DNA of 13,437 bases from Nitrososphaerota archaeon (GCA_002317795.1 NVWC01000018.1:16713-30149); one strand, 5' to 3'. Counted from the stretch's first letter, positions 2,715 through 13,437 are shown. A program made the numbers and translations. The notes: a model not told the origin generated them from the letters alone.

Positions 2715-4430
2715 ATGAAAAAGATTGTGGATATTGAAACTATGACTCTAGAAGAAGAAAATAAATTTAAAAATGAAAAAGGTTTTGATTTATCTTTTGT
2801 AATTGAAGAACTACAAAAGATACCAAATGCAGCAAAAGAAAAAATGAATCATTCAAAGAAGAGACCAATTACTCTAATTGAGGATTATCTGAATACAAAA
2901 ATTAAAAATGATCTACTACTTGTAAAAAGACTTCTCAGAGTTTATTTTTCTGCATACACTAATGAACCCATTAATTGCATTTTATTATCTCCAACTTCAG
3001 AAGGAAAGACATACTCTACAGTTCAGGTTTCAGAAATTTTTCCAAAAGATGATGTCATTAGTATAGGTAGGTTATCTCCTACCGCATTAATTCACCAATA
3101 TGGGGAATTAGTTGATCCAGATGGTTATCCTCTTAAAGAACGATTGGAAAAATTAGAACTAGATATTTTCAACGCTGAATCTGAACAGGATAAAAAATCA
3201 ATTCATGAGTTAAAACAAATCAAAACAGACATGATGAAAACTGCTAAAAATTTGGTTGATCTTACTCATAAAATTATTTTATTTCTAGATAACCCTAGTC
3301 CTCAAACTTATGAGATGCTCAAACCTATAATGTCTCATGACAAAAAAGAGATTCTTTACAAGACTACAAAAAGTGATGGTTCTTTGAGCGTAAAAGAGAC
3401 CATAATCAGGGGATGGCCTGCAACTATAATCTGTTCTGCCAAAAATGAAGCAAAAAATGAGGTATGGGCTGAAATTGCGTCAAGGGAAATTATCCTTTCT
3501 CCGAATACTGATGTAACAAAATATCATGCAGCAAACAAACTCACTTCTCAAAAAATGGGAATGCCTTCAATTCTAGAAAACAACAATAATGAAAAAAGAA
3601 TAATTGAGTTTTATGTTGAGAGATTACGATCATCTCTAGTAAAATTATGTGTTGATGGTAATCCTATAGTGAATCCATTTTATGAAATGTTGGCAGATTT
3701 GTTTCCTCATAATGAAGGAATTACAATGAGGCATTTCAAAAGATTGTTATCATTTGTAAACATTGAGACTTTGGTAAATGCAAAATCCAATATGAAGATA
3801 GAATTTATGCTCCATGAAAGAAAAGAAAAGAAAGTTTTTGTTGTTACATCATTAAAGATGATTGAAGATGCAATTAAGATATTGGGAAATATTTCAACCA
3901 TTGCACCAGAAAAAATAAAATTTTACAATGAAGTTTTTCTTCCATTAATCCAAGAAAAATCAACAACACAAATTTCACTTGGTGAAGATCCTCAAAGAAG
4001 ATTGGCTGAGACATTAGATAACATAACTGTAACAAAAGAAGAAGCTGCAGAAAAATTTACCAAAGTATTTCATAAAGTGATAACTCCTAAAGCAATTCAA
4101 GAATACTATTTGAAACAATTATCCGATGAAGGAATCCTTGATTGGAAAAAGAATGAGGATAACAAAAAACAATATCTTTATTTTCTTTCTAGTAAATTAT
4201 CCATTCATAATTTGACAACTGTCGTACGACAACTAAACGATAGACACGACAAAGATTTTCTATACGTATGGTCATGCCTAGTGAAACCTTTTCAATTGTC
4301 GTGTAAAATGGGGAAAATGATTAGGATATTTGATAACTCAAATTCAAACATCACATATCAAGAATTCAAAAAGAAAATTTCTGGTAGTATTCTAGATTTA
4401 CACGACAATCAAGGAGATAAAAATGACTGA
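2715..4430 (+). CDS. AAA+/P-loop ATPase with C-terminal winged helix; putative replication helicase/initiator of the element
   Basis: Walker A-like ILLSPTSEGKT, Walker B-like IILFLDN, sensor-1-like GWPATIICSA, Arg-finger-like EIASR, and MRHFKRLL. C-terminal wHTH-like segment TKEEAAEKF...IQEYYLKQLSDEGILDW. No primase domain is visible. Confidence 0.7.
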   Translation: MKKIVDIETMTLEEENKFKNEKGFDLSFVIEELQKIPNAAKEKMNHSKKRPITLIEDYLNTKIKNDLLLVKRLLRVYFSAYTNEPINCILLSPTSEGKTYSTVQVSEIFPKDDVISIGRLSPTALIHQYGELVDPDGYPLKERLEKLELDIFNAESEQDKKSIHELKQIKTDMMKTAKNLVDLTHKIILFLDNPSPQTYEMLKPIMSHDKKEILYKTTKSDGSLSVKETIIRGWPATIICSAKNEAKNEVWAEIASREIILSPNTDVTKYHAANKLTSQKMGMPSILENNNNEKRIIEFYVERLRSSLVKLCVDGNPIVNPFYEMLADLFPHNEGITMRHFKRLLSFVNIETLVNAKSNMKIEFMLHERKEKKVFVVTSLKMIEDAIKILGNISTIAPEKIKFYNEVFLPLIQEKSTTQISLGEDPQRRLAETLDNITVTKEEAAEKFTKVFHKVITPKAIQEYYLKQLSDEGILDWKKNEDNKKQYLYFLSSKLSIHNLTTVVRQLNDRHDKDFLYVWSCLVKPFQLSCKMGKMIRIFDNSNSNITYQEFKKKISGSILDLHDNQGDKND

Positions 4431-4476
4431 ATTTAGGCATAAAATTCATCAAAATACCATTTGTTCTGTTTGTCGT
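4214..4476. repeat. Cluster of ACGACAA motifs including a 13-bp inverted repeat
   Basis: ACGACAA occurs at 4226(+), 4246(+), 4296(-), 4402(+) and 4470(-). Palindrome TGTCGTACGACA at 4220-4231. ATTGTCGTGTAAA (4295-4307) is the exact reverse complement of TTTACACGACAAT (4397-4409). Confidence 0.6.
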
Positions 4477-4518
4477 ATTTCAATCGTAAATCAACAAGGA
4501 GATCCTGTCAATTGTTAG
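4423..4518 (+). CDS. 31-aa mini-ORF with CxxC (MTEFRHKIHQNTICSVCRISIVNQQGDPVNC)
   Basis: SD-like AAGGAGA at 4411-4417. It overlaps the ATPase stop and the probable TTG start of recombinase 2. Not in the ORF track. Confidence 0.35.
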   Translation: MTEFRHKIHQNTICSVCRISIVNQQGDPVNC

Positions 4519-5432
4519 TTGAACAAAAACTAGATCAAATTCTTCAGGAACTACAACTAATCAAAAATCATCTCAAGATTGTACCTGACAAGGATCTTGA
4601 AATCAAAGATCTTAAATCAAGTATATCTGAATATGAAACATTTGCAAAAGACGAACTAAAACTAAATGCAAAAACAATAACCAATCAACTTTCTACTCTT
4701 TCTAGATTTTTACATCATTGTAAGGGTTCAGTTAACAAAGAATCTGTAAAATCTTATCTGAATTCTAATGATTCTGATTCTTGGAAATCAAATCAACTAA
4801 AGGCTTTACGAAGATATTGTAGAGATTTTCTTCACTTGGGAAATTGGATTAATGAATTTCAATTTTTAAAACCAAGGGCAAAAATAAAGAAAATTCCTTC
4901 AGACTCAAAACTAGTTTCATTTTTCCTTGAGTTAGAAAATCAAGAACAATTAATTTTTCTGACGTTGTTAAACACTGGATTTCGTATAGGCGAAGTACTA
5001 GATCTTAAGATCAAGAACATTGATTTTGAAATCAACATGATGGATGCATCAAATATTCATGAAGGTGATACTAAACATTCATGGATTAGCTTTGTAACTA
5101 GTCAGACAATTGATTTTATCAATGAATATCTTAGTGAAAGATTCTCTGATGGAATAGATCCTGAAGCAAATCTATTTACAATTCATTCAAGATCACTTCA
5201 GAACACATTCAAGAGTATATCTAAAAAAACTGGAATTGTTATCAATCCTCATCTATTACGAACTATCTTTTCTGAAAAATGTACTAAAGCTAATCTCAAA
5301 GACAAGTACATTGATGCATTTTGTGGTAGAGTATCCCAAGGTGTTCTAGCTACAAACTACACAGACTATTCCTCTGAAGCTCTTAGAGTACAATATGATA
5401 AAATAGAATCTCTTTTGGAATTAGATTTGTAG
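4512..5432 (+). CDS. Tyrosine recombinase / integrase 2 (archaeal type with GR in place of LGH)
   Basis: R (TGFRIGE), K (GDTKH), HxxR (HLLR), IDAFCGR and catalytic Y in LATNYTDY. The ORF track starts it at 4461, but TTG 4512 follows an SD-like AAGGAGA (4496-4502) and is the more likely start. Confidence 0.9.
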   Translation: MLVEQKLDQILQELQLIKNHLKIVPDKDLEIKDLKSSISEYETFAKDELKLNAKTITNQLSTLSRFLHHCKGSVNKESVKSYLNSNDSDSWKSNQLKALRRYCRDFLHLGNWINEFQFLKPRAKIKKIPSDSKLVSFFLELENQEQLIFLTLLNTGFRIGEVLDLKIKNIDFEINMMDASNIHEGDTKHSWISFVTSQTIDFINEYLSERFSDGIDPEANLFTIHSRSLQNTFKSISKKTGIVINPHLLRTIFSEKCTKANLKDKYIDAFCGRVSQGVLATNYTDYSSEALRVQYDKIESLLELDL

Positions 5433-5720
5433 CTGTAGCTACAAAAGCTTCAATTTGAAACATTTTCTGACACAAATCTTGTAGCTGTTTTGAAACATGT
5501 CTCAGATGTATCTACTTTGTAGCTATGTTTCTAGGCGTAACACTTAGCTACATTTTGAAAAATGTTGTGAGGTAAAGCACTTCATGTATCTGTTTGTAGC
5601 TGTTTGTAGCTGTTTGTAGCTGTTTGTAGCTGTTTGTAGCTGTTTGTTGCTCACAACACTCTGCTTTGTAGCTGATTTCATATGTTTCACTTCATGAATC
5701 TAGTTGAATTTTGTAGCTGA
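5426..5720. repeat. TGTAGCT repeat field including a 10-bp tandem array (TGTTTGTAGC x5 plus variants)
   Basis: Five exact tandem units at 5591-5640 and a variant TGTTTGTTGC at 5641-5650. TGTAGCT also at 5428, 5434, 5480, 5518, 5667 and 5712; reverse copies at 5437 and 5546. Palindrome TTTGTAGCT-GT-AGCTACAAA at 5426-5445. Confidence 0.95.
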
Positions 5721-5748
5721 TTCCTAGTCACAAAATTTAGCTTCATGT

Positions 5749-5776
5749 TTGCATAATCTATAGTAGGATTGTGAAA
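5749..5776. other. 11-6-11 putative recombination site A
   Basis: TTGCATAATCT ATAGTA GGATTGTGAAA. Confidence 0.65.
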
Positions 5777-5831
5777 GAATGGTAAATTGTATTGGAACAT
5801 GTGTTATTGATTATTTTTAGGGTCGACCTTT

Positions 5832-5859
5832 TTTCATAACCCTTAGGTAGAATACGTAA
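5832..5859. other. 11-6-11 putative recombination site B
   Basis: TTTCATAACCC TTAGGT AGAATACGTAA. Confidence 0.65.
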
Positions 5860-5912
5860 ACTTTGTGACTAGTATTAAATTCAGTATTCTTAAAATTTTG
5901 TACAACCTTTTT

Positions 5913-6065
5913 CTACTTGAGGCCTTTACGTAAAATTTTGTTTATAGTATCTGAATAGCTTACTGATTTTGTAGATTGCATGTTTAGTTTTGCTTGGAGT
6001 AATTTTAATTTCTTATCCAAATCATCATCCATTACAACTGAACACTTTTTGCCATCCTTATTCAC
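5913..6065 (-). CDS. Small ribbon-helix-helix-like DNA-binding protein (50 aa; possibly frameshifted at the 5' end)
   Basis: Manual translation from GTG 6065: MNKDGKKCSVVMDDDLDKKLKLLQAKLNMQSTKSVSYSDTINKILRKGLK*. It resembles the small thaumarchaeal family with the pattern ..DDDLDKKL...QAK....S.SYS...N..LRK.LK. Not in the ORF track. Confidence 0.65.
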   Translation of the reverse strand: MNKDGKKCSVVMDDDLDKKLKLLQAKLNMQSTKSVSYSDTINKILRKGLK

Positions 6066-6285
6066 TTACGTATTTGTAAAATATCAAACAATGTATGCTT
6101 ATTTTGAGCATAACTCTTCTCTTATTCTACTCTTTTCTTAGTATTGTTGATGACTTCTTGGTGGTAGTGCATGAAAGTATTTTCCTTCTGCCACCAATCC
6201 CGATAATTTACTATTTTCTAAATTTTATACGACTTTTTTTATGATCTCTAGATTCATAAATTGTATCTTCTAATATCCACTCATT

Positions 6286-6501
6286 ATGGTTTGCAAAGGA
6301 ATCTGTACTCAACACAAAGCACAAAGAATTCACGGCATAAATCGATACATACAAGGACAAAAGATGTGTTCGGTATGTGCTATTTTCATATATTGGGATG
6401 GAAAACATTGTCCTTGTTGTAATTTTGTATTAAGAACAAAGCCACGCAACTCCAAAAATAGAAGACAATTACAAATAATCCAGACCGTAAAACGAATCTA
6501 A
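6286..6501 (+). CDS. Small Cys-rich zinc-binding hypothetical protein
   Basis: CKGIC...RY..GQKMCSVC......CPCC...LRTKPR, a pattern I recognise from thaumarchaeal small proteins. Confidence 0.8.
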   Translation: MVCKGICTQHKAQRIHGINRYIQGQKMCSVCAIFIYWDGKHCPCCNFVLRTKPRNSKNRRQLQIIQTVKRI

Positions 6502-6511
6502 TCGTATTCTA

Positions 6512-6539
6512 CTACATAATCATTATAGAGATTACGTAA
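6512..6539. other. 11-6-11 putative recombination site C
   Basis: CTACATAATCA TTATAG AGATTACGTAA, in the gap between two convergent stop codons. An extra half-site AATCGTATTCT is at 6500-6510. Confidence 0.7.
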
Positions 6540-6566
6540 ATTTTATGAGTAAACCATGACATTTCT

Positions 6567-6977
6567 TTATTTCAATCTCTTTGTTTTTCTACCCATGAAT
6601 TCTTCAAAGGTTCGTGATTTCTTATCTTTGAATACAACTTGAGGATAATGAAATATAGAATATGCTGCCATCTGTTCTAGAATGGGTTCTACTGACTTTC
6701 CTTTTGTAGTTACAACATATTCTACTCGTGGCGGGGTTTCGTTGAAGGATTTTCTAGTGATTAACCCATTTTCTTCCATTTCTTTTAGACGAATGGAAAG
6801 AATTTTTGTATTAATTCCCTCAATGTCATCCATAAATTCGTTAAACCGTTTTTGTTTTAGTAAAAGCATATTTCGTAAAATATGAATGGTGAATTTTTTT
6901 CCCAATATTCTAAAAGTTTGATCAATTGGACACCACTTTGTATCTTGAATTAAATGTTCAACTTCTTTTTCTTTCAT
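6567..6977 (-). CDS. HxlR-family (DUF24) winged-helix transcriptional regulator
   Basis: WCPIDQTFRILGKKF...KRFNE...GINTKILSIRLKEMEENGLITRK...PPRVEY..T.KG. Confidence 0.93.
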   Translation of the reverse strand: MKEKEVEHLIQDTKWCPIDQTFRILGKKFTIHILRNMLLLKQKRFNEFMDDIEGINTKILSIRLKEMEENGLITRKSFNETPPRVEYVVTTKGKSVEPILEQMAAYSIFHYPQVVFKDKKSRTFEEFMGRKTKRLK

Positions 6978-6989
6978 ATTGAATTCTAT

Positions 6990-7042
6990 TACTTACCATT
7001 ATTCTACTACTTGGTTTTAATACTTACCTTTTTACAGTATTA
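6990..7042. promoter_or_regulatory. Candidate HxlR operator region in the divergent promoter
   Basis: Direct repeat TACTTACC at 6990-6997 and 7021-7028. Inverted repeat TAATACT-N11-AGTATTA at 7018-7042. Confidence 0.35.
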
Positions 7043-7044
7043 TC

Positions 7045-7350
7045 ATGAATAAACCCACTGTTGAATTGGTACAATTCAAGCTAAAAGATGGAATAGACGA
7101 AGATGCTCTGTTAACTGTCACAAAAGAAAACATGGAATTTGTAAGAAAGCAAAGTGGATACATAAGAAGAGAATTAGTCAAAGGCCCAGATGGATTATGG
7201 ATTGACATAGTTCATTGGAAAAGTCTTTCTGAATCTCAAGAATCTGAAAAAAAGTTTTATGAATCATCTGATTGTCAAAATTATTCCAAAATAATTGATG
7301 AGTCTTCTGTGAAATTGACGCGTATGGAACAAGTACTAAATTTTGACTAG
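7045..7350 (+). CDS. ABM-like dimeric alpha/beta-barrel protein (antibiotic biosynthesis monooxygenase family)
   Basis: VELVQFKLKDG...FVRKQSGYIRRELVK...WIDIVHWKSL. Divergent from the HxlR gene. Confidence 0.75.
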   Translation: MNKPTVELVQFKLKDGIDEDALLTVTKENMEFVRKQSGYIRRELVKGPDGLWIDIVHWKSLSESQESEKKFYESSDCQNYSKIIDESSVKLTRMEQVLNFD

Positions 7351-7424
7351 TGTTTCCAAAAGGAAATCCACTCTATTTTATTTTTTATAATTGACACTTT
7401 TCGTAATCCTATACAAGAGTAAAC

Positions 7425-7452
7425 TTTCGTAATCTGTAGTTAGATTACGAAA
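7425..7452. other. 11-6-11 putative recombination site D (perfect arms)
   Basis: TTTCGTAATCT GTAGTT AGATTACGAAA; the arms are exact reverse complements. An extra half-site TTTCGTAATCC is at 7399-7409. Confidence 0.75.
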
Positions 7453-7545
7453 AGAATGATTTTAAGATCTAATGTTGTCTAATTATTTGATAATTAAAAA
7501 TGATGATCCAAAATTATTTTAATGGGAATTTTAGATGTGTATATT

Positions 7546-7890
7546 ATGAAAAAAATTGAAGCAATGGTACCTAGCTTAAGGCGAAAAGATATAGTTGATA
7601 GTATTCTTAACGCAGGTGCACAAGGTGTTACCGTAGTGGAAAGTAAAGGTAAAGGTAAAGGTAACAGACCATTGGTGAGCGGTGCTCGCGGTACTGCAAA
7701 ATATATCGCTGATTATAATAGAATAGACACTATAACTACTGTAGTTGATGATTCAAAAATTGATTCTATAGTTTCTATAATTATGAATACATCTTACAGA
7801 GGTAATAATGGAGATGGGATGATCTTTGTGTCTACAATTGATGAAGCATATCACATAGGTACCAAGTCAAAAATATCTTCATTGGATTAG
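7546..7890 (+). CDS. P-II family nitrogen regulator (GlnB/GlnK-like)
   Basis: MKKIEA start (ATG 7546 preferred over 7522), GVTV.ESKGKG, T-loop RGTAKY, GNNGDGMIFVSTIDEAYHIGT. Confidence 0.92.
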   Translation: MKKIEAMVPSLRRKDIVDSILNAGAQGVTVVESKGKGKGNRPLVSGARGTAKYIADYNRIDTITTVVDDSKIDSIVSIIMNTSYRGNNGDGMIFVSTIDEAYHIGTKSKISSLD

Positions 7891-7922
7891 TATTCTCATT
7901 TCTATTTAACGCATATCCATAA

Positions 7923-7950
7923 TTTCGTAATCTTACTATGGATTATGAAG
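7923..7950. other. 11-6-11 putative recombination site E
   Basis: TTTCGTAATCT TACTAT GGATTATGAAG, between convergent stops (P-II and the DUF1059-like gene). Confidence 0.7.
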
Positions 7951-7981
7951 TAGTAACAAGTTTATCGACAATCAGTAAAAA

Positions 7982-8149
7982 CTAGGCGGGGTATTTTCTC
8001 AGTATGAATTGCATCACAGCTTCTTTTCTATAGTCTATTCCATGTACTTCATTAGTGTGTTGCATAAATTGTACTACGACATATTCTCTATCTCCTTCTA
8101 CTTCAAAATCACACTCAAACCCGTAATCATTACATCTTAGTTTTACCAT
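7982..8149 (-). CDS. DUF1059-like small metal-binding protein (55 aa)
   Basis: Manual translation: MVKLRCNDYGFECDFEVEGDREYVVVQFMQHTNEVHGIDYRKEAVMQFILRKYPA*. It has the C.D.GF.CDF...H...HG pattern and an upstream GGAGGA SD. Not in the ORF track. Confidence 0.85.
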   Translation of the reverse strand: MVKLRCNDYGFECDFEVEGDREYVVVQFMQHTNEVHGIDYRKEAVMQFILRKYPA

Positions 8150-8159
8150 GATATTCCTC

Positions 8160-8399
8160 CTAACACTGTCCCTCTATCCCCATCAAAGTTATCGTTGAAC
8201 GGACATTGTAGATCTTTCTAATCTTTTCCGTGATCAACTGTCTTAATTCTTCAATCTGGCCACATTCTAAAGTTACTAAAATATCATAAACACCAAATAC
8301 TCCCTGGATATTTTTTATACAATCAATTGTTTTTAAATCCGATATAATTTTACTTTCAGACCCTAACTCGCAGTTTATTAAAACAAAGGCTTTTGACAT
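8160..8399 (-). CDS. Lrp/AsnC ligand-binding domain protein (no HTH)
   Basis: AFVLINCELGSE...GVFGVYDILV...IRKIYNVRSTITL. Confidence 0.9.
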   Translation of the reverse strand: MSKAFVLINCELGSESKIISDLKTIDCIKNIQGVFGVYDILVTLECGQIEELRQLITEKIRKIYNVRSTITLMGIEGQC

Positions 8400-8407
8400 G
8401 ATTTCTT

Positions 8408-8647
8408 CTAATTTTGTTCCGGAATTGTCATCAAGCTAAGAGTTGAACGTACATGCTCAAGTTTTCGGATGTTCCAAATAATAGTTTCACGAAGTTTTTC
8501 TCTATCTTGATTCTCTATCTTTGCAATTATATCATATGCACCAAATGTTCCATAAACTTCTTTAACTGAATCAATATGCTTTAGGTCTTCGATTACCGCC
8601 TCTTCAAAACTAAGATCACAATTAATTAGAACAAAAGCAATGTCCAT
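8408..8647 (-). CDS. Lrp/AsnC ligand-binding domain protein (no HTH), paralog of the neighbour
   Basis: AFVLINCDLSFE...GTFGAYDIIAKI...IRKLEHVRSTLSL. Confidence 0.9.
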   Translation of the reverse strand: MDIAFVLINCDLSFEEAVIEDLKHIDSVKEVYGTFGAYDIIAKIENQDREKLRETIIWNIRKLEHVRSTLSLMTIPEQN

Positions 8648-8820
8648 AGATAAATTTGTGTAAAAAAATATTTAAGCAGAACTATGAAAAAGATTTAAAA
8701 TTGTTTAATTATTGTTCATACACAAAAAATTAGTATAACTACATTTTTTAATTTATATCTATATTTCAAAAAGGAAAAAGTCTAGTTTTCATTCCTGTCA
8801 AAAGTAATAGGGTCAAAAAA

Positions 8821-9351
8821 TTATCTGAGAGGCTGCATTTCACGAGTCACAACATCTCCTGAAGAATGCATTGTAACTTCGGTATCAGTAATTTCTCCTA
8901 TAATGTCAAGACAATTAGTATTTTTAATAAAGTCTTCTGTAAATAGTCCATCTGCATATAGATTACGTTCATCATTCATAGTATGACATCTGGCATTAAC
9001 ATTGATAGAATCATTCCGTTTATCATGATACATTTCTAAAACAAGTTGATTATTGGTTTCAAAATTCATTATTCCTACTTGTAGAATGCCATTCCCTCTG
9101 CCTCGTGAATTAAGTTCCTGTTTTGCATCAGGGTATGTTTCATACATCGCAATATATGCTGGATGCGATTCAAAAATAGCTAAAAGTTTTTCATCAGATT
9201 GATAACCACTATTAACAATTTGCTCCCAATCACTGCCGGCATTTTGAATTATGCTAGGAAGAACAGCAAATAACAGCAGACTAAACAGTGTCACTCCCAT
9301 TCCAATTCCAAGAAAGATAATAAATTTGTGTAATTTATGCATCATACGCAT
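8821..9351 (-). CDS. Hypothetical membrane-anchored protein
   Basis: One N-terminal hydrophobic helix (FIIFLGIGMGVTLFSLLLFAVL) followed by a soluble domain with two Cys. The start may be 9345 or 9342. Confidence 0.75.
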   Translation of the reverse strand: MRMMHKLHKFIIFLGIGMGVTLFSLLLFAVLPSIIQNAGSDWEQIVNSGYQSDEKLLAIFESHPAYIAMYETYPDAKQELNSRGRGNGILQVGIMNFETNNQLVLEMYHDKRNDSINVNARCHTMNDERNLYADGLFTEDFIKNTNCLDIIGEITDTEVTMHSSGDVVTREMQPLR

Positions 9352-9501
9352 AGTGGCACATGGTCTCCAATATATGAGACGTTATCAATTACTGTATTCC
9401 ATTTTGCTATGACTGTTTTAGGATCTTGTCTTGCCCATATTCCTTTTACTCCCAAAGCATCAATAATTGCTACAACTCCATGTTCTATTGTTAATACTCA
9501 A
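9342..9501 (-). pseudogene. Truncated N-terminal fragment of a nucleotidyl-cyclase-like protein
   Basis: Frame 9497-9342 reads VLTIEHGVVAIIDALGVKGIWARQDPKTVIAKWNTVIDN...*. It has no in-frame start, and a TTG at 9501 is one base out of frame. VAIIDALGVK resembles the first-strand D motif (V.F.DILGF) of class III cyclase-like folds. Confidence 0.4.
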
Positions 9502-12634: not shown

Positions 12635-12844
12635 CTGATAATCTCTAAAAATACAAAGCCCAGTTTTTGTGTGTAAAAAGTTGATACTAACCTAAACTAT
12701 AACGTGAGTTTGTGTGATTATTCATTTAAGATATAAAATCACATGATTGATGAATTAATTCATCCCGAAGACGAAGATCTTTTTAAACAAATTTCATTTT
12801 TTTCAATAGGATTTTTATCTAATGATGAGAAACTATTGTGAAAA

Positions 12845-13437
12845 ATGCCCATAAAGACTGAATTGCATTGTCATAACTCATTTTCAAATTTTCATCTTGG
12901 ATACAAAGAGCCCCCACATGATTGTGATATTTCGATCAGAGAACAACTAGAACAATCATATCAATTGGGATTGGATACAATTTTTGTTACAAATCATAAC
13001 ACTTTGGATGGATATGATCAGTTATTAGAATACAAAAATGATCATACCAAATTTAAAAACATTGAAGTTTTTCCAGCTGAGGAGATCACAACGAATACTG
13101 GTGCACATGTTTTAGCATATGGAATTCATGATACAATTCCTGGAGGGATTTCTCTTGATGAGGTAATTGATGAGGTATCAAAACAGGGTGGTGTAACGTC
13201 TGCCCCTCATCCATTTAGTCTAATTGATGCTCTACGTGAAAGTGCCAAAAAATGTGATATGGTTGAAGTTTTCAATAGCAATAATGTTGATTTGGTGTCT
13301 AATGTACGTGCAGCTCAATTTGCATTGGATAATAATATGATTCAGGTGGCAGGTAGTGATTCACATGTAATATCTACTCTTGGTAGATGTGTTAACGTAA
13401 TTGATTCTGAAAATAATCTTGATGATATTTTACATGC
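12845..13437 (+). CDS. PHP-domain metal-dependent phosphoesterase (3' truncated by window edge)
   Basis: Manual translation: MPIKTELHCHNSFS...IFVTNHNT...PAEEITT..GAHVLAYG...SAPHPF...VEVFNS...AGSDSH. Missing from the ORF track because there is no stop in the window. Confidence 0.92.
   Translation, partial: MPIKTELHCHNSFSNFHLGYKEPPHDCDISIREQLEQSYQLGLDTIFVTNHNTLDGYDQLLEYKNDHTKFKNIEVFPAEEITTNTGAHVLAYGIHDTIPGGISLDEVIDEVSKQGGVTSAPHPFSLIDALRESAKKCDMVEVFNSNNVDLVSNVRAAQFALDNNMIQVAGSDSHVISTLGRCVNVIDSENNLDDILH

Follow-up and report, generated by a model that had tools for sequence, protein, structure and literature searches.

Dif-like 28-base sites delimiting gene modules behind a Xer-like recombinase gene in Nitrosopumilus: a candidate archaeal gene-capture system

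Known recombination-site systems and the array of the window

In the sea and in soils alike, few microbes are as abundant as the ammonia-oxidising archaea, and little is understood of the routes by which accessory genes are acquired and traded by their small genomes. Tyrosine recombinases carry a catalytic set formed by Arg, Lys, His-x-x-Arg, His/Trp and a Tyr nucleophile. In integrons, the attC sites are hairpins of 57–141 bases, long, imperfect and conserved in structure rather than in sequence, while the cassettes are promoterless, co-oriented and read from a common promoter. In engineered cassette exchange, heterospecific lox or FRT sites have the same arms with different spacers and do not cross-react. 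The present work deals with five related 28-base palindromic sites found in a stretch of 13,437 nucleotides from a Nitrosopumilus genome (GCA_002317795.1, NVWC01000018.1:16713–30149; the whole of this stretch is called here the window), downstream of the genes of two tyrosine recombinases, Int1 and Int2. The sites have the layout of dif, in which two 11-base inverted arms surround a 6-base spacer and cleavage takes place at the spacer ends (PMC8371274). The most similar arrangement is that of the dif modules of Acinetobacter, which are bounded by pdif sites on Rep_3/OrfX plasmids and moved by the host XerC/XerD; their replacement is proposed to occur by formation of a cointegrate at one matching pair of sites and its resolution at a second pair, with matching spacers on both sides (PMC13141974). 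Taking all the evidence together, we consider it likely that the sites of the window are core sites of a tyrosine recombinase which split accessory DNA into exchangeable modules, with Int2 as the most likely enzyme.

The window corresponds to positions 16713–30149 of contig C15 in an assembly of 37 contigs and 1.9 Mb, named here G000. C-numbers refer to its contigs, other G-numbers to comparison genomes, and L-numbers to loci fetched from them. The five sites and the gene of the candidate enzyme are located as follows:

5749–5776: site A, spacer ATAGTA, the site nearest to Int2
5832–5859: site B, spacer TTAGGT
6512–6539: site C, spacer TTATAG
7425–7452: site D, spacer GTAGTT, a perfect palindrome
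7923–7950: site E, spacer TACTAT
4461–5432, + strand: Int2, Xer-like tyrosine recombinase, candidate enzyme (PF00589, 47.5 bits against a cut-off of 27.1)

Each site is formed by an 11-base arm, a 6-base spacer and another 11-base arm, with the arm consensus TTTCGTAATCY, and the complementarity between the arms of A, B, C, D and E amounts, respectively, to 8, 6, 8, 11 and 8 of the 11 positions. An earlier, sequence-only reading of this DNA had quoted the five sites at 5749, 5832, 6512, 7425 and 7923, and all of them read as quoted. Considering the positions of the open reading frames (ORFs), it was also right in placing the five sites between genes, and C and E between convergent stop codons: C lies between a + strand ORF ending at 6501 and the HxlR gene (− strand) ending at 6567, and E between the ends of the P-II gene (7890) and the DUF1059 gene (7982). 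A scan of the window gave no further full site. An orphan half-site (7399–7426) occurs 26 bases upstream of D; its left arm is perfect and its spacer is TATACA, but the right arm has decayed, and it looks like the remnant of a site that once closed the module with the HxlR and ABM-like genes. The possibility that A and E form an inverted pair was considered and rejected: they have the 6-base spacer in common, in opposite orientation, but the inner flanking bases differ (T..G versus C..A), so that, if the overlap comprises 8 bases, A and E belong to different types. No sign of inversion between A and E was seen.

Compared to the dif modules of Acinetobacter, the array has in common the 28-base sites of 11-6-11 geometry, the modules of one to a few genes bounded by sites and with one site common to neighbouring modules, the presence of the same module in different contexts, and the occurrence of fusion modules where a site was lost. 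The outer bases of the arms are also alike, as the pdif XerC arms begin with (A)TTTCGTA (PMC13141974) and so do the Nitrosopumilus arms. On the other hand, the Nitrosopumilus system is archaeal, and chromosomal or located on an integrated element, while the modules of Acinetobacter are on plasmids. Its arms fit one consensus, instead of being distinct XerC and XerD arms, and, since they are near-identical, the orientation of a site comes from the spacer alone. Furthermore, an array consists of collinear sites and shows no alternating C and D modules, the order of its spacer types is conserved, and a single Xer-like protein encoded by the element is the candidate enzyme, instead of the host XerC/XerD.

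The arrangement had been described in the sequence-only reading as integron-like or pdif-like. The second term is the more adequate one, as the array is far closer to dif modules, and the defining features of integrons fail. The likeness to integrons consists of a tyrosine recombinase gene at the end of the array, with the first site close to it and repeats beside it, of short cassettes with diverse content, and of the chromosomal location of arrays. In contrast to attC, the sites have 28 bases, are conserved in sequence and of duplex type, and show no compensatory variation of the arms. Unlike integron cassettes, those of Nitrosopumilus point both ways and bring their own upstream regions. 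With the models of integron integrases, Int2 scored 27 bits (TIGR02249, cut-off 265) and 18.5 bits (PRK15417, cut-off 435). The claim that the sites are not attC hairpins was thus borne out by their sequence conservation and also by their weak folding, as four of the five sites, folded as single strands, reach only −1.2 to −3.7 kcal/mol. In a set of 120 distinct sites, only two are perfect palindromes. The innermost arm base is usually non-complementary, and the choice of G or A at arm position 5 is independent between arms (23, 14, 9 and 7 cases; p = 0.76, in G000). The independence of the arms and the weak folding indicate that each arm is kept as a sequence, like a protein-binding half-site, and not as a stem.

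The 11-6-11 architecture is also that of the chromosomal Xer/dif systems, and XerA proteins are the nearest relatives of Int2 among solved structures (archaeal XerA 5hxy and 4a8e, with no others) and among curated families. Nevertheless, there are tens of sites per genome bounding accessory DNA (41 strict ones in G000), rather than one site at the terminus, and the best NCBIfam model for Int2, recomb_XerA_Arch (NF040815), gives 77.9 bits, which is under its equivalog cut-off of 220. Judging by these scores, Int2 is Xer-like, but not a XerA. As to engineered lox/FRT exchange, a segment between two site types can there be swapped for another with the same pair, as would be the case here; however, that is a laboratory design, whereas the one considered here would be natural, with at least five site types in a fixed order.

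The sequence-only reading knew of no such system in ammonia-oxidising archaea, and in the open-access full text searched none was found described; a search of the same text for dif modules in archaea gave no report of them. Integrons in archaeal metagenome bins are reportedly claimed in a report later than a 2019 survey of the integrated elements of the phylum. According to that survey, integron-like platforms had not been detected in archaea (PMC6563490), and some of the loci considered here may already be listed as cryptic elements in its supplementary element lists. Compared to what has been described, the Nitrosopumilus system seems dif-module-like but distinct, by virtue of its near-symmetric arms, its collinear sites, its putative element-borne recombinase and its ordered spacer types.

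Site distribution, breaks of homology and spacer order

A weight matrix was derived from the ten arms of the window and used for a genome-wide scan based on summed arm scores. In G000, 58 sites were found with a summed score of at least 14, and 57 with at least 16. Inverted pairs of arms (at least 10 bits) were 45 for a spacer of 6 bases and 0–1 for each of the other spacers from 0 to 15, while direct and everted arrangements of arms with the same score were also 0–1. The 41 matches of the strict pattern CRTAATC-N8-GATTAYG in this genome were all within sites found with the matrix, and the reversed control pattern gave none. The sites are grouped in about a dozen arrays (contigs C4, C5, C6, C10, C11, C15, C19, C27, C28, C32 and C35), in which they are intergenic and have one or two ORFs between neighbours. 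The five-site arrangement of the window is far from chance.

Among 151 species representatives of Nitrosopumilus, the strict pattern occurs in 36, including G000, with 1–22 copies in the other genomes, and the reversed control gave 0–1 per genome. In a sample of the order, it occurs in 21 of 301 genomes, with 9 of 31 in the same genus and 2 of 6 in one sister genus (the latter figure rests on G392 and G403, and the order tallies include the unpublished genomes G392 and G383), and two or more copies per genome were found only in these two genera. Patchy and multi-copy as it is, this distribution corresponds to an accessory system rather than to a core regulon. One alternative raised in the sequence-only reading was a motif scattered as a promoter element over the genome; the scans with matrix and pattern showed instead its confinement to accessory arrays in 36 of the 151 genomes. 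In viral contigs of IMG/VR, 113 stretches contain the core pattern, with one site each, and none of the 80 fetched loci contains two or more. These matches are at about the level of chance and thus give no support to virus-borne arrays.

The correspondence between sites and breaks of homology was studied with a pool made up of the 57 sites of G000 and 68 sites in 20 fetched loci (six other genomes, four closed chromosomes). For every pair of sites, 60 bases of each side were compared in both orientations, adding up to 15006 oriented comparisons. In 45 pairs of sites, one flank was at least 70% identical and the other one unrelated, while in four pairs both flanks were alike. In all the 45 one-sided alignments, the homology stops in the site. 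Concerning the sites of the window, the right flank of B is common with C6, and its left flank is replaced in C6 and in contigs of two runs (X2 and X4) of one study; the left flank of C matches C4 (9226) at 90%, with an unrelated right flank; one flank of D coincides fully (100%) with the end of contig C6, and the other is unrelated; and E is a three-way mosaic at one site, as its left flank is that of C27 (100%) and its right flank is that of C28 (8663) over 36 bases. The contigs C6, C10 and C27 end in or next to shared pieces, which is explained by the behaviour of assemblers when one segment has two contexts.

Breaks of the same kind were observed between species and within closed chromosomes. 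At the G158 site L020:9017, the left flank is common with C5 of G000 and the right flank with C10 of G000. Two loci of the closed genome G132 show no difference up to and including the left arm and the spacer, and they diverge from the first base of the right arm. Identical cassettes were found in different arrays within one population, and a given cassette may occur in different arrays or even in different slots. In G053, a cassette stands between two direct TACTAT sites, as the insertion of a single-site molecule would leave it. So the result that the sequence-only reading had named as support was obtained: module content switches exactly at the sites, within a population and between species. 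Ends of miniature inverted-repeat or other transposons with target duplications were rejected as an explanation of the sites, as neighbouring spacers differ.

The stretch was also found, as assembled contigs, in sequencing runs of five studies, and four runs from two of them were aligned on positions 4400–9400. Among the 24 loose contig ends listed (41 more being unlisted), 10 were within 5 bases of a site edge, compared to about 0.5 expected by position, one more was inside C, and another one was at the half-site 7399. One contig matches 5831–6222 and continues with 1.6 kb of other sequence, switching exactly at the outer edge of B. These loose ends agree with the sites having alternative neighbours in a second study as well, but they do not prove it. 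Joints between contigs (e.g., 7452 to 7923) were not counted, because their shorter side has 23–34 bases, about the length of one site, and they cannot be distinguished from cross-alignment. Neither was use made of the higher contig depth over the P-II module in three runs, since contig depth is no copy number.

The spacers fall into discrete classes. The 120 distinct sites have 41 spacer classes, while random spacers with the composition of the genome gave a mean of about 113 and a minimum of 101 in 2000 draws, and seven classes have 8–16 members each. Sites of the same class mostly have unrelated flanks, which means that the spacer is conserved without homology of the flanks. Moreover, the classes follow an order. 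Starting from the Int2 gene on C32, it is: AGTACC, TTAGGT, (TAGTAG-like), GTAGTT, TACTAT, TATACA; and sites B to E of the window obey it. A second series, TGGTAT, TCCTTA, TATCTA, CCATTA, recurs in G132, G160, G071 and G024. Recurrent oriented types of site pair account for 44 of the 88 slots between sites (30 arrays). When order and orientation were shuffled within arrays (2000 trials), the mean was 15.2 and the maximum 30, and shuffling of orientation alone gave 25.4 and 37, respectively; the arrays are related to one another, and these permutation figures are descriptive rather than probabilities from independent samples. Slots of the same type always contained different cargo: 8 of 8 (ATAGTA>AACTAC), 7 of 7, 4 of 4, and another 4 of 4 formed by four loci of one closed genome, G132.

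Such an order bears on an alternative explanation of the arrays, namely that they are passive scars of serial integration at one att site, followed by decay, with no ongoing exchange of cassettes. The arrays do occur at hot spots of integration, for instance directly after guaB in G000 and in G081, degenerate sites and half-sites exist, and modules bring their own upstream regions, with a median distance of 122 bases from a site to the start of the next gene. However, serial integration predicts one overlap sequence per array, and the neighbouring sites differ instead. The recurrence of the order of spacer types across loci and species with different cargo, and the presence of identical cassettes in different arrays within one population, do not fit with scars either, and we regard this explanation as very unlikely.

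The setting of the sites among genes is relevant to another alternative, according to which the palindromes would be operators of dimeric transcription factors, or terminator hairpins, with an incidental position at module borders. In favour of it, the sites are palindromic and intergenic, and many small proteins with a putative DNA-binding function are encoded in the arrays (HxlR, Lrp-like, RHH-like and Cys-rich ORFs). However, the 125 sites of the pool were distributed, with ORFs crudely called as the longest ones starting with ATG, as 38 between convergent ends, 31 between divergent starts, 46 in tandem settings, 5 inside ORFs and 5 at locus edges, so that they have no fixed place upstream of genes. 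Neither the discrete and ordered spacer classes nor the stop of homology at the sites would be expected of an operator, the distribution is patchy (36 of 151 genomes), and the independent variation of the arms, together with their weak folding, is contrary to a hairpin. We regard the regulatory explanation, too, as very unlikely.

The candidate recombinase and the proposed exchange of modules

In Int2, residues R175, K205, R267 (in the sequence PHLLR), R290 and Y300/Y303 are invariant among 11 homologues. H264 is replaced by Lys in the two most distant ones, and the usual His/Trp position corresponds to the invariant R290, as seen in an alignment to XerA 5hxy only. The genome G000 has 18 matches of PF00589, distributed in three families. 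Three of its four Int2-family genes have a site 199–317 bases beyond the stop codon. Concerning the Int1 family, with paralogues in C24, C4, C26 and C29, no site was found within 4 kb in this genome. The sequence-only reading had attributed the system to one or both recombinases of the element; the link to the sites holds for Int2, and in this genome it does not for Int1, which is of another family.

The association of Int2 with sites extends to other genomes and genera, in agreement with what the sequence-only reading had put forward for checking. A homologue of Int2 is present in 17 of the other 150 genomes of the genus, and strict sites occur in 11 of these 17, compared to 24 of the 133 without homologue. 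The first site is about 30–330 bases after the Int2 gene in G099, G160, G007, G083, G081, G067 and G066, and in G007 the site, 272 bases downstream, has the same spacer and orientation as A. Across genera, the distance from Int2 to the downstream site is 30–510 bases. In a collection of species, 16 of 19 Int2 loci have a site-like palindrome, by our own count; among them are loci titled as Nitrosotalea and as Nitrosotenuis, the latter with three sites within 1.1 kb, and several from Nitrososphaeria. The type of arm changes with the identity of the Int2 protein: CGTAATC or CATAATC at 48–61% identity, CTTAATC in a lineage at 52–53%, and CAATAATC at 38–44%. In the 151 genomes there are eight exact matches of the CAATAATC variant, and seven of them are within 2.7 kb of an Int2-family gene. 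In G099 and G160, both arm types are found behind one Int2, so the correspondence of arms with Int2 is not one to one. As a separate observation, two sites with CAATAATC arms in G009 (C1, 558323 and 594546) have the same spacer in opposite orientation, are 36 kb apart, and each adjoins an Int2-family gene or fragment; the stretch between them could be an invertible or composite segment.

The geometry of the sites, the breakpoints, the spacer classes and the linkage to Int2 all support, on comparative grounds, the gene-capture platform based on recombination sites which the sequence-only reading had proposed. That the 28-base sites are sites of a tyrosine recombinase at which modules are exchanged is, to our judgement, probable; that Int2 is the enzyme acting at them is held with somewhat less confidence. 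The mechanism would be the following. Each site would offer two binding arms of about 10–11 bases around an asymmetric overlap region of 6–8 bases, and the sites would delimit modules of one or two genes. Int2, encoded in the integrated element, would bind and cut the sites, with strand exchange at the edges of the spacer, and the spacer classes would act as compatibility groups. Two arrays, for example, those of an incoming element and of the chromosome, might fuse by crossover at one shared type of site, and the cointegrate might then be resolved at a second type, swapping the segment in between, as proposed for the dif modules of Acinetobacter. The fixed order of classes would let two arrays trade equivalent segments. 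A circle with one site could also insert, leaving its module between two like sites, and the unlikeness of neighbouring sites would guard the array against self-deletion.

Several observations weigh against this reading. With respect to the enzyme, one Int2-family locus of G000, on C29, has no nearby site, and around many of the arrays (C28, C35, G068 and G081) a stretch of 5 kb is devoid of recombinase genes, which means that Int2, if it is the enzyme, often acts in trans from a mobile element or was lost. Another case is the closed genome G132, with 11 strict sites and recent site-bounded duplications, in which no match of PF00589 was found, so that sites are retained, and were rearranged not long ago, with no recombinase resident: an enzyme acting in trans, or since lost, is needed there, and a role of the host XerA is made unlikely as well. 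With respect to the exchange, the spacers of the 45 one-sided pairs are identical in 17, one base off in 11, and at least two bases off in 17; in many of the latter pairs, short conserved extension elements next to the sites, instead of common cargo, account for the likeness. The tendency of an arm to travel with its adjacent flank was not significant in these pairs (24 for, 12 against, 9 ties; p = 0.13). One cassette is found in different slot types in two species, so spacer identity is no absolute rule. With respect to the material, G000 is a metagenome bin with many stretches duplicated at 92–99% identity (for instance, 8.6 kb between C18 and C31, and 6.5 kb between C18 and C3), which indicates that, although its contamination is estimated at 1.7%, it is a mixture of closely related strains. 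This redundancy at the level of strains makes the figure of 57 an overestimate of the sites per cell, and the comparisons within the genome are partly comparisons between strains. The contigs used for the analysis of loose ends break at repeats by construction, and an aligned length is given for few of those ends. The relatedness of the arrays and the crude calling of ORFs, mentioned above, count in the same sense.

The points concerning the enzyme are also those that favour a different explanation, in which the sites are true junctions but are not made by Int2, being either short linkers for homologous recombination or sites of another enzyme. Besides G132 and the arrays without a nearby integrase, it might be argued that 28 identical bases could sustain some homologous exchange. 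However, the strict 11-6-11 dyad is the geometry of the core sites of tyrosine recombinases (PMC8371274), and linkers for homologous exchange need no palindrome with a variable centre. The regular position of a site 30–510 bases behind Int2 genes across genera, and the co-variation of the arms with the Int2 lineage, also speak against it. On balance, this alternative seems unlikely.

A more specific form of the preferred reading, with Int2 acting on module-bounding sites, may be suggested tentatively, and we see it as possible rather than probable. It amounts to a natural recombinase-mediated cassette exchange, in which Nitrosopumilus and related ammonia oxidisers would have several racks of slots addressed by pairs of heterospecific dif-like sites, always in the same order, and the recombinase would travel on mobile elements. 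As no two sites in a rack match, the rack could not delete itself, while racks on an Int2-bearing element, on the chromosome or in the DNA of another cell would trade equivalent slots. A recombinase serving chromosomal racks in trans would explain the racks in genomes devoid of recombinase. If this were true, there would be a genus-wide pool of small regulatory and surface genes in otherwise streamlined genomes, and an archaeal gene-capture system that arose independently of integrons.

Should the system operate as proposed, it would represent gene capture evolved a second time, independently, and it would extend the logic of dif modules beyond Acinetobacter and beyond bacteria. A compact recombinase with heterospecific 28-base sites might also provide genetic tools for archaea, which have few. 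Since a simple pattern is enough to locate the sites, it also becomes possible to test directly how the hypervariable islands of these genomes originated.

Genes, modules and neighbouring sequences of the window

Besides the sites and Int2, the features of the window are the following:

564–1694, + strand: Int1, tyrosine recombinase (PF00589, 53.8 bits), directly downstream of guaB
2715–4430, + strand: element backbone protein of 571 amino acids, without Pfam, PHROG or NCBIfam family
5348–5718, + strand: iteron-like cluster of TGTAGCT, between the end of Int2 and site A
5860–5916, no strand assigned: 57-base extension beside site B, of TTAGGT type
5860–6511: B-C fusion module, with an RHH-like ORF (5913–6065, − strand) and a Cys-rich ORF of 71 amino acids (6286–6501, + strand)
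6540–7424: C-D module, with HxlR (6567–6977, − strand) and an ABM-like ORF (7045–7350, + strand), and the half-site 7399 at its end
7453–7922: D-E module or P-II cassette, with the P-II gene (7522–7890, + strand; PF00543)

The gene labels of the sequence-only reading were upheld in part. Pfam confirms the two tyrosine recombinases, HxlR, P-II, DUF1059 and two Lrp/AsnC ligand-binding domains, and it does not confirm the other three labels: the ORFs called RHH and Zn finger matched no family, and the one called ABM gave an E-value of 0.15, below the Pfam cut-off. Likewise, the B-C interval had been taken as a single module with the RHH and Zn-finger ORFs, and this does not hold, as both halves occur elsewhere as separate cassettes. 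Its first part matches cassettes in C28, C10 and G068, and its second part matches cassettes of C4 and C6, each standing alone between two sites. By this comparison, the B-C interval is composed of two fused cassettes. The ends of the P-II cassette run on into contigs C6 and C27, whose neighbours differ, and G068 has a copy of it, 87% identical, after which comes a site of another spacer class.

The Cys-rich ORF of 71 amino acids (6286–6501) has no Pfam match and belongs to a family with 1 to 39 copies in each of 149 out of 151 genomes of the genus, one version being apparently a conserved core copy inside a longer ORF of about 150 amino acids. The family was considered as a possible site-specific partner, and it was rejected as such because, with this prevalence, it does not track the sites.

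Three kinds of sequence adjoin the sites or the recombinase genes. The motif TGTAGCT occurs 15 times in the window, compared to 0.83 expected, with 13 of the 15 copies within 5348–5718, and a 10-base tandem repeat with 6.7 copies is located inside the cluster (5585–5651). AGCT-rich repeats of a similar kind, as judged by eye, are found behind Int2 homologues in other genomes, and the cluster may contain putative accessory or arm-type binding sites. The 57-base extension is 80–98% identical beside sites in C4, C6, C10, C11, C28 and C32, regardless of the cargo that comes next (copies are located, for instance, at C4 8900–8952 and C6 938–993, and also in C28 and C32). It terminates in a AAAATTTTGTACGACCTTTTT-like sequence, and a similar box occurs at about 6226–6250, upstream of the Cys-rich ORF. 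Possible roles of the extension are those of promoter, terminator or accessory site; a scan of the window with Rfam assigned neither the extension nor the sites to a known RNA family. Finally, the 571-amino-acid backbone protein has a copy with 75% identity on contig C29, about 2.2 kb from another Int2-family gene.

Int1 is probably the integrase of the surrounding element. The Rfam and tRNA scans showed neither RNA genes nor a tRNA attachment site in the window. The end of guaB (1–498) and a PHP-domain gene (12714–13437) are at the two extremes of the window; both are conserved in the genus and are hundreds of kb apart in closed genomes, so the window spans a break of synteny. In G081, an array comes directly after guaB, and the 11.5 kb fetched there contain no recombinase gene, whereas guaB and the array of the window are separated by the Int1–Int2 element. 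The G081 array leads to pheA-like and TPR genes, and the same genes adjoin the array on C10 of G000, the end of this contig overlapping positions 6124–6226 of the window.

Two other observations concern the surroundings of sites outside the window. Contig C22 (26 kb) has direct repeats of 1.5 kb, 98.7% identical, at both ends (1–1514 and 24691–26207), each with a site of the TGTATA class; circularity of the molecule, a duplication and strain mixing are all possible explanations. A solo Cas1 gene (PF01867, 202 bits) lies about 0.5 kb from a site in G160 (L011:8145–9377), and an ORF with an N-terminus that is Cas1-like by eye lies 1.3 kb from a site in G000 (C28:20741–21982), so that casposon-like elements may adjoin some arrays.

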